Part shown: positions 26,622-47,973 of the stretch, in pieces
How the letters are laid out: the number at the start of each line of letters is the position of its first letter
How positions within the stretch are numbered: the stretch's first letter is position 1
Source: Escherichia coli
Lineage (GTDB): Bacteria > Pseudomonadota > Gammaproteobacteria > Enterobacterales > Enterobacteriaceae
NCBI RefSeq assembly: GCF_045037415.1
Contig: NZ_CP173438.1
Length of the DNA: 64,000 bases
Direction: 5' to 3' (one strand)
Made by a program: the position numbers and the translations under genes
Notes under the pieces: generated by a model
What the model was told of the DNA's origin: nothing
The model's database searches: none
Seen by the model: the letters and a program-made list of their open reading frames with translations, nothing else

Positions 26622-27708
26622 GATTGCCAATATTAAGAAGTCTTTTGGTCGCACCCAGGTGCTGAACGATATCTCACTGGATATTCCTTCTGGTCAGATG
26701 GTCGCGTTGCTTGGGCCGTCCGGTTCCGGAAAAACTACGCTGCTGCGCATTATCGCCGGGCTGGAGCATCAAACCAGTGGGCATATTCGCTTTCACGGTA
26801 CCGACGTGAGCCGTCTGCACGCGCGGGACCGTAAAGTCGGTTTCGTGTTCCAGCATTACGCGCTGTTTCGCCATATGACGGTGTTTGACAATATCGCTTT
26901 TGGCCTGACGGTGTTGCCACGGCGTGAACGCCCGAATGCGGCGGCGATCAAAGCGAAAGTGACAAAATTGCTGGAGATGGTGCAGCTTGCTCATCTGGCG
27001 GATCGTTATCCGGCGCAGCTTTCCGGCGGTCAGAAACAGCGTGTGGCGCTTGCACGCGCGCTGGCTGTGGAACCGCAAATTTTGCTGCTTGATGAACCGT
27101 TTGGCGCGCTGGATGCGCAGGTGCGTAAAGAGCTGCGTCGCTGGCTGCGTCAACTGCATGAAGAACTGAAATTCACCAGCGTGTTCGTGACCCACGACCA
27201 GGAAGAGGCGACCGAAGTAGCTGATCGTGTAGTGGTGATGAGTCAGGGCAATATTGAACAAGCTGACGCACCGGATCAGGTATGGCGTGAACCGGCGACT
27301 CGTTTTGTGCTGGAGTTTATGGGCGAGGTAAACCGCCTGCAGGGAACCATTCGCGGCGGGCAGTTCCACGTTGGCGCACATCGCTGGCCGCTGGGATACA
27401 CCCCCGCGTATCAGGGGCCGGTGGATCTCTTCCTGCGCCCGTGGGAAGTGGATATCAGCCGCCGTACCAGCCTCGATTCGCCGCTACCCGTACAGGTACT
27501 GGAAGCCAGCCCGAAAGGTCACTACACCCAATTAGTGGTGCAGCCGCTGGGGTGGTACAACGAACCGCTGACGGTCGTGATGCATGGCGACGATGCCCCG
27601 CAGCGTGGCGATCGTTTATACGTTGGTCTGCAACATGCGCGGCTGTATAACGGCGATGAGCGTATTGAAACCCGCGATGAGGAACTTGCTCTCGCACAAA
27701 GCGCCTGA
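26611..27708 (+). CDS. cysA: sulfate/thiosulfate ABC transporter ATP-binding protein
   Basis: 365 aa; Walker [10 protein letters not shown] and ABC signature LSGGQKQR. Confidence 0.9.
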
Positions 27709-27730
27709 TAGGTTGAGTGAATGTTAAACG

Positions 27731-27761
27731 CCCGGAGGCGCTTCCCGCGATCCGGGTTTTT
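27731..27761 (+). terminator. hairpin (cccgga...tccggg) plus T6 between cysA and cysM; possible partial terminator
   Basis: Inverted repeat with T-run read directly; inside the cys operon so probably attenuating rather than fully terminating. Confidence 0.35.
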
Positions 27762-27783
27762 TAATGGCAAGGTTTTGTAACCT

Positions 27784-35004: not shown

Positions 35005-35233
35005 AATCAGGATGAGCTCCTTTTGACCAATCCCAGGAAAATTCTGCGTATTTTACCGGGTAATTGCGCAATGGACAGTTAGGATATGTTCGAAAAAACA
35101 GCAAAAAGCACGATTTCATCTATCTTTGTGCTGTGAAAGTTAATAGTGCACTTGCACTTGAGGTAATCGGCAAATACTCTTAGTGAGTAAATGTTTGCCG
35201 TGGTGGCAAGGTGTTAGAACAACAGAGAATATA

Positions 35234-36232
35234 ATGATGCAGGATTTGCGTCTGATATTAATCATTGTTGGCGCGATCGCCATAATCGCTTTACTGGTAC
35301 ATGGTTTCTGGACCAGCCGTAAAGAACGATCTTCTATGTTCCGCGATCGGCCATTAAAACGAATGAAGTCAAAACGTGACGACGATTCTTATGACGAGGA
35401 TGTCGAAGATGATGAGGGCGTTGGTGAGGTTCGTGTTCACCGCGTGAATCATGCCCCGGCTAACGCCCAGGAGCATGAGGTTGCTCGTCCGTCGCCGCAA
35501 CACCAGTACCAACCGCCTTATGCGTCTGCGCAGCCGCGTCAACCGGTCCAGCAGCCGCCTGAAGCGCAGGTACCGCCGCAACATGCTCCGCGTCCAACGC
35601 AGCCGGTGCAGCAACCCGTGCAGCAGCCTGCCTATCAGCCGCAGCCTGAACAGCCGTTGCAGCAGCCAGTTTCGCCACAGGTCGCGTCAGCGCCGCAGCC
35701 AGTGCATTCAGCACCGCAACCGGCACAACAGGCTTTCCAGCCTGCAGAACCCGTAGCGGCACCACAGCCTGAGCCTGTTGCGGAACCGGCTCCAGTTATG
35801 GATAAACCGAAGCGCAAAGAAGCGGTGATTATCATGAACGTCGCGGCGCATCACGGTAGCGAGTTAAACGGTGAACTGCTTCTTAACAGCATTCAACAAG
35901 CGGGCTTCATTTTTGGTGATATGAACATTTACCATCGTCATCTTAGCCCGGATGGCAGCGGCCCGGCGTTATTCAGCCTGGCGAATATGGTGAAACCGGG
36001 AACCTTTGATCCTGAAATGAAGGATTTCACTACTCCGGGTGTCACTATCTTTATGCAGGTACCGTCTTACGGTGACGAGCTGCAGAACTTCAAGCTGATG
36101 CTGCAATCTGCGCAGCATATTGCCGATGAAGTGGGTGGTGTAGTGCTTGACGATCAGCGCCGTATGATGACTCCGCAGAAATTGCGCGAGTACCAGGACA
36201 TCATCCGCGAAGTCAAAGACGCCAACGCCTGA
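35234..36232 (+). CDS. zipA: cell division protein ZipA (FtsZ-binding)
   Basis: 332 aa from [18 protein letters not shown]-terminal TM anchor, P/Q-rich linker, C-terminal FtsZ-binding domain. Confidence 0.9.
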
Positions 36233-36293: not shown

Positions 36294-38318
<2,025 letters not shown>

Positions 38319-38319
38319 G

Positions 38320-38538
38320 ATGGAAAAAGAGCAGCTGATTGAAATAGCCAATACGATAATGCCGTTTGGCAAGTACAAAGGGCGTCGCTTAATCGACCTG
38401 CCGGAGGAGTATCTGCTGTGGTTTGCCCGCAAAGATGAGTTCCCGGCAGGGAAGCTCGGTGAGCTAATGCAAATCACGCTGCTGATTAAAATCGAGGGGC
38501 TGACGCAACTGGTCCAGCCCCTGAAACGTCCGCTTTAA
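38320..38538 (+). CDS. ypeB: small protein YpeB (DUF3820)
   Basis: 72 aa from internal ATG (MEKEQLIEIANTIMPFGKYKGRRL...); ATG 1 nt after ligA stop. Confidence 0.8.
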   Translation: MEKEQLIEIANTIMPFGKYKGRRLIDLPEEYLLWFARKDEFPAGKLGELMQITLLIKIEGLTQLVQPLKRPL

Positions 38539-39533
38539 GCTTTATCGGCGCTGCTTTCCTGCTGCGCCTGTAACTGTTCGGTCTGGCGTTTGTATCGACG
38601 CGCCAGCACCGCACAGACCATCAATTGGATCTGATGGAAAATCATCAGGGGCAGCACCATCATACCGATCACCGATGTGGGGAACAGAATGTTTGCCATC
38701 GGGATGCCATTTGCCAGACTCTTTTTCGAACCACAAAAGACGATAGTAATTTCATCTGCCTTATTGAAGCCCAGTCGGCGTGCCATAAAGACGTTAACTA
38801 CAATCACGATAGCCAGAAGAACGCAACTGACCACCACGATAAACAGCAATGATCCCCAGCCAACTTTGTGCCAGATACCGTTAACGACGGCTTCGCTGAA
38901 TGCCGTATAAACTACCAACAGAATGGACGTCTGGTCAGTTTTCGCAATCCATTTTTTATTACGCGACACCCAGTCACCAATCCACGGCCGGGAAAGATGC
39001 CCCAACACAAATGGCAGCAACAGTTGCAGCATAATTTTACCGACCTGCTCAAGGCTGCCCCCTGCACCGTGAACATTCATCACCAGACCAACCAGCAATG
39101 GTGAAAGGAAAATCCCCAGCAGGCTGGATGCTGACGCAGAACAAACCGCCGCCGCGACGTTACCGCCCGCCATTGACGTGAAGGCGATTGCAGACTGCAC
39201 GGTCGCGGGGAGAATGCACAAGTAGAGAAAACCGGAGTAGAGCATCGGGTCGACATTTACCGGTTTCCACCAGGCAAACAGCACGCCCAGAATCGGAAAC
39301 AGCACGAAGGTGCTGCACATTACCCACAAATGCAGTCGCCAGTGGCCACCGCCAGCAATAATCGCCTCACGCGATAACTTCGCGCCGTGCATAAAAAACA
39401 GCAGGGCTATCACTGCGGTGGTCAGATTTTCAAAGAAGGGGACGAAATCGCCTCTGGCCGGAAAGAAAGAGGCCAGCAACACCACCGTGATCAGGGTTAA
39501 GGTGAAAGGATCGAGGATACGAAAAAGTTTCAT
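38535..39533 (-). CDS. yfeH: bile acid:sodium symporter-family membrane protein YfeH
   Basis: 332 aa polytopic. Confidence 0.85.
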   Translation of the reverse strand: MKLFRILDPFTLTLITVVLLASFFPARGDFVPFFENLTTAVIALLFFMHGAKLSREAIIAGGGHWRLHLWVMCSTFVLFPILGVLFAWWKPVNVDPMLYSGFLYLCILPATVQSAIAFTSMAGGNVAAAVCSASASSLLGIFLSPLLVGLVMNVHGAGGSLEQVGKIMLQLLLPFVLGHLSRPWIGDWVSRNKKWIAKTDQTSILLVVYTAFSEAVVNGIWHKVGWGSLLFIVVVSCVLLAIVIVVNVFMARRLGFNKADEITIVFCGSKKSLANGIPMANILFPTSVIGMMVLPLMIFHQIQLMVCAVLARRYKRQTEQLQAQQESSADKA

Positions 39534-46999: not shown

Positions 47000-47392
47000 T
47001 TATGCTGATTCATCTATGTCGAGACGAGCAAGAAAATTACGAATTCCTTCGCGTGACAAAAATTGCGCAACTTTTTCTTGCTCACTGTGAGTCATGTTGT
47101 CTATTGCGCTGATGATTTGCCGATAAGCAGGAGTGCGAATACCCGGTGCGTATTCGGCAAGGGGTTCTTCGGCTTCCAGAAGCATCGGTGTGTTATGGAA
47201 GGCTGGCGTGTTCTGAATAAACTCGCAAACTTGCGTATCGACCAGAATAAGTCTGGCACGACCGCCTTTCACGCCGGGAAATTTTTCCGTTTTCCAGCCT
47301 TTTTCTCTGATCCAACGGTTAACAGTTTGTTTAGCCACACCGAGGCATTCAGCCAGTTCTTCGGTGGTCATTTTATTGCGTAATCTTTTCAT
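47000..47392 (-). CDS. yfeD: putative DNA-binding protein YfeD (HTH, DUF1323 family)
   Basis: 130 aa; N-terminal HTH-like region paralogous to the adjacent ORF; symbol by synteny next to gltX. Confidence 0.75.
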   Translation of the reverse strand: MKRLRNKMTTEELAECLGVAKQTVNRWIREKGWKTEKFPGVKGGRARLILVDTQVCEFIQNTPAFHNTPMLLEAEEPLAEYAPGIRTPAYRQIISAIDNMTHSEQEKVAQFLSREGIRNFLARLDIDESA

Positions 47393-47393
47393 A

Positions 47394-47738
47394 TTATTTG
47401 CTATCGCGAATCCCTAAGCGTTGTAACAATCCGATAATCCCTTCCCGCAGAAGCAAGGATGTAAACTGTTTTTGTTCAACTGGCGTCATCTCTTTCGCCA
47501 GTGTCACCAGCAACACTTCAAGCGGCGCATCACCAGAAAGGGCTGGCGCTTCTCCCTGACCTTCTGGACGTTCAGCATTGCGAATATATTCACGAACCTG
47601 TTCATTGACGTGAACCAGTCGAGCCTTGCCACCCTGGACGCCTGGTTTTGGTGACGTTGTCCAGCCTTCCTTGCGTACCCATTTATTAATGGTCTGGCGG
47701 CTATAGCCGGTCAGTCTGGCAAGTTCATCTGGCGTCAT
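47394..47738 (-). CDS. yfeC: putative DNA-binding protein YfeC (HTH, DUF1323 family)
   Basis: About 114 aa from internal ATG (MTPDELARLTGYSRQTINKWVRKEGW...); ORF-track start at 47753 is an alternative. Confidence 0.75.
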   Translation of the reverse strand: MTPDELARLTGYSRQTINKWVRKEGWTTSPKPGVQGGKARLVHVNEQVREYIRNAERPEGQGEAPALSGDAPLEVLLVTLAKEMTPVEQKQFTSLLLREGIIGLLQRLGIRDSK

Positions 47739-47973
47739 CCTCTCCTTGAACATAACAATTCCCTGAATGTATGTGGGTCTATTAGTAGTTCATTTTATAA
47801 CACCACTTTACAGGAAACCGTGACATGAATAACTACTGAATGCGAGCGGTTTTCCAAAATTGTTCATTTGCCTGATTTTTCAGCGATTGAAACTACACGT
47901 GGCAATTTGCCGTTGACACATTCGGGCGGAATTCATATGATGCCGCCCGTCAACTCGACAAGCTTTACGTGAT

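Follow-up and report, generated by a model that had tools for sequence, protein, structure and literature searches.

The ligA gene, which encodes NAD-dependent DNA ligase, and the small gene ypeB probably make up a two-gene operon of Escherichia coli in which translation of ypeB is coupled to that of ligA by termination and reinitiation, and whose second product may be a stand-alone adaptor resembling the C-terminal tail of the exonuclease ExoX. Public annotation already contains the gene pair with its spacing and assigns YpeB to the DUF3820 family. What we add here is a comparative picture of the locus, a compensation between start codon and Shine-Dalgarno (SD) strength, and the link between YpeB and the ExoX tail. 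The junction by itself is of little import, since E. coli operons commonly contain stop-start junctions this tight. The hypothesis can be sharpened, however: YpeB may be a strongly conserved, stand-alone ExoX C-terminal module located behind an essential ligase throughout Enterobacterales. Once identified, the partner of this module would provide a function for YpeB, for the ExoX tail, and for many proteins of phages and bacteria in which the module occurs.

The ligA-ypeB locus of E. coli

The stretch of DNA that we analyzed, hereafter the window, consists of 64,000 nucleotides of one strand of an E. coli genome. The junction and its surroundings comprise the following features:

36303..38318, + strand: ligA, NAD-dependent DNA ligase of 671 aa, including the TGA stop at 38316-38318 (ORF, Pfam domains, RefSeq)
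38309..38314, + strand: weak SD-like GGGTAG in the final ligA codons, 5 nt 5′ of the ypeB ATG
38316..38322, + strand: junction TGA-G-ATG, i.e., ligA stop, 1-nt spacer and ypeB start (direct read)
38320..38538, + strand: ypeB, 72-aa DUF3820 protein (PF12843), with ATG at 38320 and TAA at 38536-38538 (ORF, Pfam, RefSeq)
38535..39533, - strand: yfeH, SBF-like transporter, convergent with ypeB (ORF, Pfam, annotation)

The Pfam domains of LigA are adenylation, OB, Zn-finger, HhH and BRCT. Bases 38310-38325 read GGT AGC TGA G ATG GAA, with a single G at 38319, which places ypeB in the +1 reading frame relative to ligA. This direct read confirmed an earlier note on this DNA in that ypeB starts 1 nt past the ligA stop, within TGAGATG. 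The title of that note spoke of an overlap of the two codons, which is incorrect, as they are separated by the 1-nt spacer and share no base.

The RefSeq record of strain SK1144 places ligA, ypeB and the convergent yfeH at identical coordinates, and a 701-nt query spanning the junction was 100% identical to that strain. The ligA-ypeB segment was present at ≥95% identity in 5425 of 5426 complete E. coli genomes, where the annotation is always ligA / ypeB / yfeH. E. coli K-12 has these genes (b2411-b4546) in identical order and likewise 1 nt apart, an arrangement that the literature calls the 'ligA-ypeB cluster'. Two synonymous changes in a sigma-54 site within ligA distinguish the window strain from K-12, and otherwise nothing of substance. 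Upstream, a gap of 70 nt separates zipA from ligA; the mechanically called zipA ORF reaches back to a GTG at 35183 (35183-36232, 349 aa), and the RefSeq start is at 35303. Elsewhere in the window, cysA (26681-27777) is a frameshifted pseudogene according to the RefSeq record of SK1144.

Over the 50 kb of annotation that match the window, approximately 14 of 36 co-directional adjacent CDS pairs are at most 5 nt apart or overlap, members of the eut and cys operons among them. The 1-nt stop-start spacer of ligA-ypeB recurs in yfeD-yfeC (47120-47873, - strand), showing that the arrangement is common. The ligA-ypeB junction is thus an ordinary operon junction, with a spacing typical of E. coli operons.

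Several lines of evidence point to ypeB as a real gene under strong purifying selection. Its product matched the PF12843 profile at 101.3 bits (cutoff, 22; E = 2.6e-29), residues 3-68 aligning with profile positions 2-66 of 66. An exhaustive search at E ≤ 0.001 yielded 894 family representatives (50% identity), of which 190 reached E ≤ 1e-10. Stand-alone proteins of 45-136 aa make up nearly all of the best 150 relatives. The motif MPFGKYxGR..LPExYLxWF..FPxGxLG..NGL was kept in 33 diverse members of the family, among which residues P15, G17, P28, W34, P42, G47 and G60 of YpeB were invariant and M14, Y19, G21, E29 and Y31 were at least 90% conserved. For orthologues from 27 Enterobacterales with unsaturated dS, the median dN/dS relative to E. 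coli was 0.072. Summed variability at codon positions 1, 2 and 3 amounted to 11.6, 6.8 and 28.4, i.e., it was concentrated at the third. The proposal of the earlier note would fall if ypeB were unconserved or untranslated; as far as the sequence tells it is neither, with a dN/dS of 0.07 and a conserved start site.

A spurious ORF was ruled out by this same ratio and by the number of family representatives. We also rejected a longer ypeB of 103 aa starting at GTG 38227, as proposed by some annotators, because in most relatives the frame is closed by a stop codon 3-48 nt before the aligned start, with no alternative start available. As to names, DUF3820 is called QSregVF_b in Pfam, where quorum-sensing-regulated virulence factor is a 'putative' label, and the literature on DUF3820/QSregVF merely lists the family name. 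Most publications that mention 'ypeB' deal with an unrelated Bacillus spore protein.

YpeB and the C-terminal module of ExoX

The similarity of YpeB to proteins outside its own family involves its N-terminal core:

38353..38424, + strand: conserved ypeB core TIMPFGKYKGRRLIDLPEEYLLWF, codons 12-35, common to the ExoX-like C-terminal module

YpeB and the ExoX tail share the core pattern FGKY(K/R)G-x-x-x-D-...-YL-x-W. ExoX is composed of an RNase_T domain and an ExoX-like_C domain at residues 174-203, the latter matching PF20600 with an E value of 1.7e-13. By BLASTP, residues 4-35 of YpeB aligned with residues 159-198 of E. coli ExoX (E = 8e-5), and hhalign matched the YpeB family profile to ExoX 172-201 (E = 8e-5, 61% probability). 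The comparison of YpeB with PF20600 itself gave 14.4 bits, which is below the cutoff of 26.5 (E = 0.025; residues 16-24 aligned) and thus a match at a lenient threshold. Residues 10-42 of YpeB also matched the C-terminal part of the NCBIfam models PRK06309 and PRK06310, which represent DNA polymerase III epsilon, DnaQ-like exonucleases.

A metagenomic protein, P0124, connects the two families. It matched PF20600 at an E value of 6.8e-54 and YpeB at 1e-27, and one of its repeats bridges them, with matches to YpeB 12-34 (E = 2e-7) and to ExoX 172-217 (E = 3e-8). This protein (L085:3-1895) is 630 aa long, is truncated at the 5′ end of its gene, and contains ten tandem ExoX-like_C/DUF3820 repeats of approximately 62 aa; it is encoded on a lone 2.2-kb JGI contig.

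The AlphaFold2 (AF2) model of YpeB has a pLDDT of 95.6. A search for solved structural relatives of this model returned none, and weak structural matches were to phage proteins, including an exonuclease of the DnaQ type, a Rad52-like one and one with ExoX-like_C. In ExoX and DnaQ-type exonucleases, the module is found C-terminal to the nuclease domain, whereas YpeB stands alone with no nuclease domain. Residues 36-72 of YpeB are specific to DUF3820 and lie outside the coverage of PF20600. Crystallized ExoX 1-167 keeps its activity without the C-terminal module (PMC3753628), so the module is non-catalytic in ExoX. Altogether, the sequence comparisons identify the YpeB core as a stand-alone relative of the non-catalytic tail of ExoX/DnaQ-type 3′-5′ exonucleases.

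Gene order in Enterobacterales and the link to DNA metabolism

We scanned one genome per species with an alignment of eight query sequences, which yielded 80 loci. With the window strain added, the comparison covered 57 loci of Enterobacterales (including the window strain) and 24 outside the order, from Vibrio, Photobacterium, Pseudomonas, Microbulbifer, Tolumonas, Dasania and Cellvibrionales. The conservation of the pair across Enterobacterales, which the earlier note had proposed as a check, was complete with respect to order: ligA was upstream of ypeB on the same strand at 57 of 57 loci. The spacing ranged from -8 to +6 nt at 42 of these, with a peak at +1 (19 loci) and the others at -8 (3 loci), -1 (7), 0 (5), +2 (4) and +3 to +6 (4). 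The bases of these tight junctions vary and include TGAGATG, TGAAATG, TAAATG, TGATG and TAACGTG, among others. It is the persistence of tight spacing despite changing junction bases that goes beyond chance.

At the remaining 15 of the 57 loci, 32 nt to 1.6 kb separate ligA from ypeB. The spacer measures 32-236 nt at six of them, in Hafnia, Morganella, two Yersinia, Pectobacterium zantedeschiae and Acerihabitans. Strong GC-rich hairpins in the long spacers of Morganella and Yersinia scored as terminators only on the opposite strand, and our scan of the Hafnia spacer detected no strong hairpin or terminator. At the nine others, found in Photorhabdus, Xenorhabdus, Arsenophonus, Providencia and one MAG, a gene for a 400-aa nucleoside transporter of the NupC family lies between ligA and ypeB:

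L028:3673-4875, with equivalents in L025, L027, L034, L041, L044, L046, L049 and L052: NupC-family insertion that breaks the tight junction and keeps the gene order

Outside Enterobacterales, ligA was not found within 5 kb of ypeB at any of the 24 loci. Their ypeB neighborhoods show no conservation, and the neighboring genes are variable and unrelated to DNA. A Photobacterium DUF3820 gene adjoins NUDIX and LRR genes. The ligA-ypeB linkage is thus a synteny specific to Enterobacterales, usually tight and breakable. The attachment of ypeB to ligA arose in that order, and YpeB can do without it.

It is nearly an even call whether this adjacency is a mere historical accident in the ancestor of Enterobacterales, with YpeB having nothing specific to do with the ligase. 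The outside loci, with neither a nearby ligA nor conserved neighbors, are what such an accident would leave, and so are the NUDIX and LRR neighbors in Photobacterium and the transporter gene that has come between the pair in Photorhabdus, Xenorhabdus, Arsenophonus and Providencia. However, the synteny was retained at every one of the Enterobacterales loci. In addition, homology of the YpeB core to a module attached to exonucleases suggests a DNA function, which would make a meaningful pairing with a ligase likelier than it would be for a random small protein.

The earlier note had surmised a DNA-metabolism role for YpeB from its coupling to ligA. The ligA linkage itself does not support such a role, since it is confined to one order and the outside loci have no ligA nearby; the homology to the ExoX/DnaQ module lends the role modest support of an independent kind. 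We put forward a role of YpeB in DNA metabolism tentatively, then, as somewhat less than an even prospect, and on the grounds of module homology rather than of adjacency to ligA. If YpeB has such a role, it would most plausibly serve DNA repair or replication as an adaptor that binds a partner or DNA ends.

Transcription and translation of ypeB

We found no sigma-70-like promoter and no intrinsic-terminator-like site on the + strand from ligA to the end of ypeB. In antibiotic-resistant E. coli strains, ligA and ypeB belong to one co-expression module, together with soxS, soxR, rob, zwf, nfo, sodA, fpr and fldA (PMC11446759). Co-transcription of the pair, as implied in the earlier note, is supported by this shared module, by the lack of an intervening promoter- or terminator-like site and by the adjacency of the genes in all but one of the E. 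coli genomes, and we regard it as very likely. The other genes named from the module, which we take to be Sox/Mar/Rob-type stress genes, hint at oxidative-stress regulation of the ligA-ypeB operon. In such a bicistronic operon, synthesis of YpeB would depend on the ligA mRNA and, probably to some extent, on the translation of ligA.

The ypeB start is preceded by weak initiation signals in E. coli, where the best anti-SD duplex upstream of it has an energy of -3.7 kcal/mol. Among the tight loci, the nine with a GTG start have a GGAG-type SD in the last ligA codons (median, -7.7 kcal/mol), whereas the 31 with an ATG start have a weak SD (median, -3.7 kcal/mol; Mann-Whitney p = 0.001, without phylogenetic correction). 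This compensation between start codon and SD strength indicates that initiation at the exact ypeB start codon is under selection, and it is equally compatible with re-initiation and with de novo, SD-led initiation. Folding of the RNA at the junction showed no extra stability relative to shuffled sequence (z = -0.53), and we discarded the idea that RNA structure there masks the start site.

The 1-nt spacer and the weak SD lead us to favor, by a slight preference, translational coupling from ligA to ypeB. The pair resembles known coupled pairs with adjacent or overlapping codons in that both genes are on the same strand, stop and start are a few nucleotides apart, and a weak SD for the downstream gene lies inside the upstream one. 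The UGAUG junctions of the trp operon are translationally coupled pairs; ligA-ypeB differs from them in having a 1-nt spacer rather than an overlap, and in that its coupling is predicted. Ribosomes terminating on ligA would keep the RNA around the ypeB start from folding, and some of them might re-initiate at the adjacent ATG with the assistance of the weak SD. YpeB output would thereby be tied to both the ligA mRNA and its translation. Coupling is dispensable at the 15 non-tight Enterobacterales loci, because 32-236 nt or a whole NupC-family gene intervenes there.

Alternatively, the co-transcribed ypeB might be translated independently, with the 30S subunit binding de novo at the SD-like 3′ end of ligA, and the 1-nt spacing might merely reflect genome compaction. 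The pairing of GTG with GGAG and of ATG with weak SDs suggests that SD strength matters, and lineages with spacers of 32-236 nt do have recognizable SDs, such as GGAGGGG in Yersinia (-10.0 kcal/mol). The absence of significant masking structure at the junction also fits independent initiation. We nevertheless consider it rather unlikely, as the E. coli SD is weak for a gene under strong purifying selection, and the tight spacing has been retained at most Enterobacterales loci while the junction bases turned over. The SD/start-codon compensation does not discriminate between the two mechanisms, because SD motifs enhance re-initiation too.

The transcription of ypeB might also owe less to the ligA mRNA than we propose. 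A sigma-54 site, IS30 (TTGGCATTGTCGTTGCA), was mapped by ChIP-seq in K-12 inside ligA, on the same strand and 343 bp upstream of ypeB (PMC4591121). The window strain carries a degenerate copy of it:

37957..37973, + strand: degenerate IS30 copy TTGGAATTGTCGTTGCC, 347-363 nt upstream of the ypeB ATG

If most ypeB expression came from a separate promoter within ligA, for which this site is a candidate, the mRNA would have a long 5′ UTR, and the case would resemble nagB-nagE and yqeC-yqeB. The position and orientation of IS30, with ypeB downstream, agree with this scenario, and the same study validated other intragenic sigma-54 sites as promoters; IS30 is not among the validated ones (PMC4591121). 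Furthermore, the window copy differs from the K-12 site by two synonymous changes and matches 9 of the 11 specified positions of the ChIP-bound K-12 site (-24/-12 element, TGGCA-N7-TTGCW), and none of 56 Enterobacterales loci exceeded this score or showed a full match. The copy retains the GG and GC dinucleotides of the site, but Gly and Ala codons leave no choice at these bases. The sigma-54 site in ligA thus resembles intragenic sigma-54 promoters in being a K-12 ChIP-seq site oriented toward ypeB, and is unlike the validated ones in being unvalidated, altered in the window strain and unconserved in other Enterobacterales. With no sigma-70-like promoter found either, we regard a main promoter inside ligA as improbable and see in the non-conserved sigma-54 site a minor competing source of ypeB mRNA.

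A LigA-YpeB fusion produced by +1 frameshifting or stop readthrough at the end of ligA is in keeping with the +1 frame of ypeB, which in E. coli has no stop codon over the 99 nt that precede the ATG, but it is effectively refuted by the change of frame relation from species to species (spacings of -8, -1, 0, +1, +2 and more), by an upstream open stretch of just 3-48 nt in most species, and by the absence of a visible slippery or prfB-like motif at the junction.

At the other end of the ligA-ypeB operon, the stop codons of ypeB and yfeH share a palindromic TTAA (38535-38538), so that the two coding sequences overlap by 4 nt. Among the 165 convergent excludons listed for MG1655 is yfeH-ypeB, with transcription units that overlap in half or more of the analyzed RNA-seq sets (PMC12288877). 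This fits both the 4-nt overlap and the missing + strand terminator after ypeB. RNA from 38500 to 38640 on the + strand, which extends past the ypeB stop and is antisense to the yfeH 3′ end, was much more stable than shuffled sequence (z = -2.86) and forms GC-rich hairpins without a U-tract. The ligA-ypeB transcript might end non-canonically at these hairpins.
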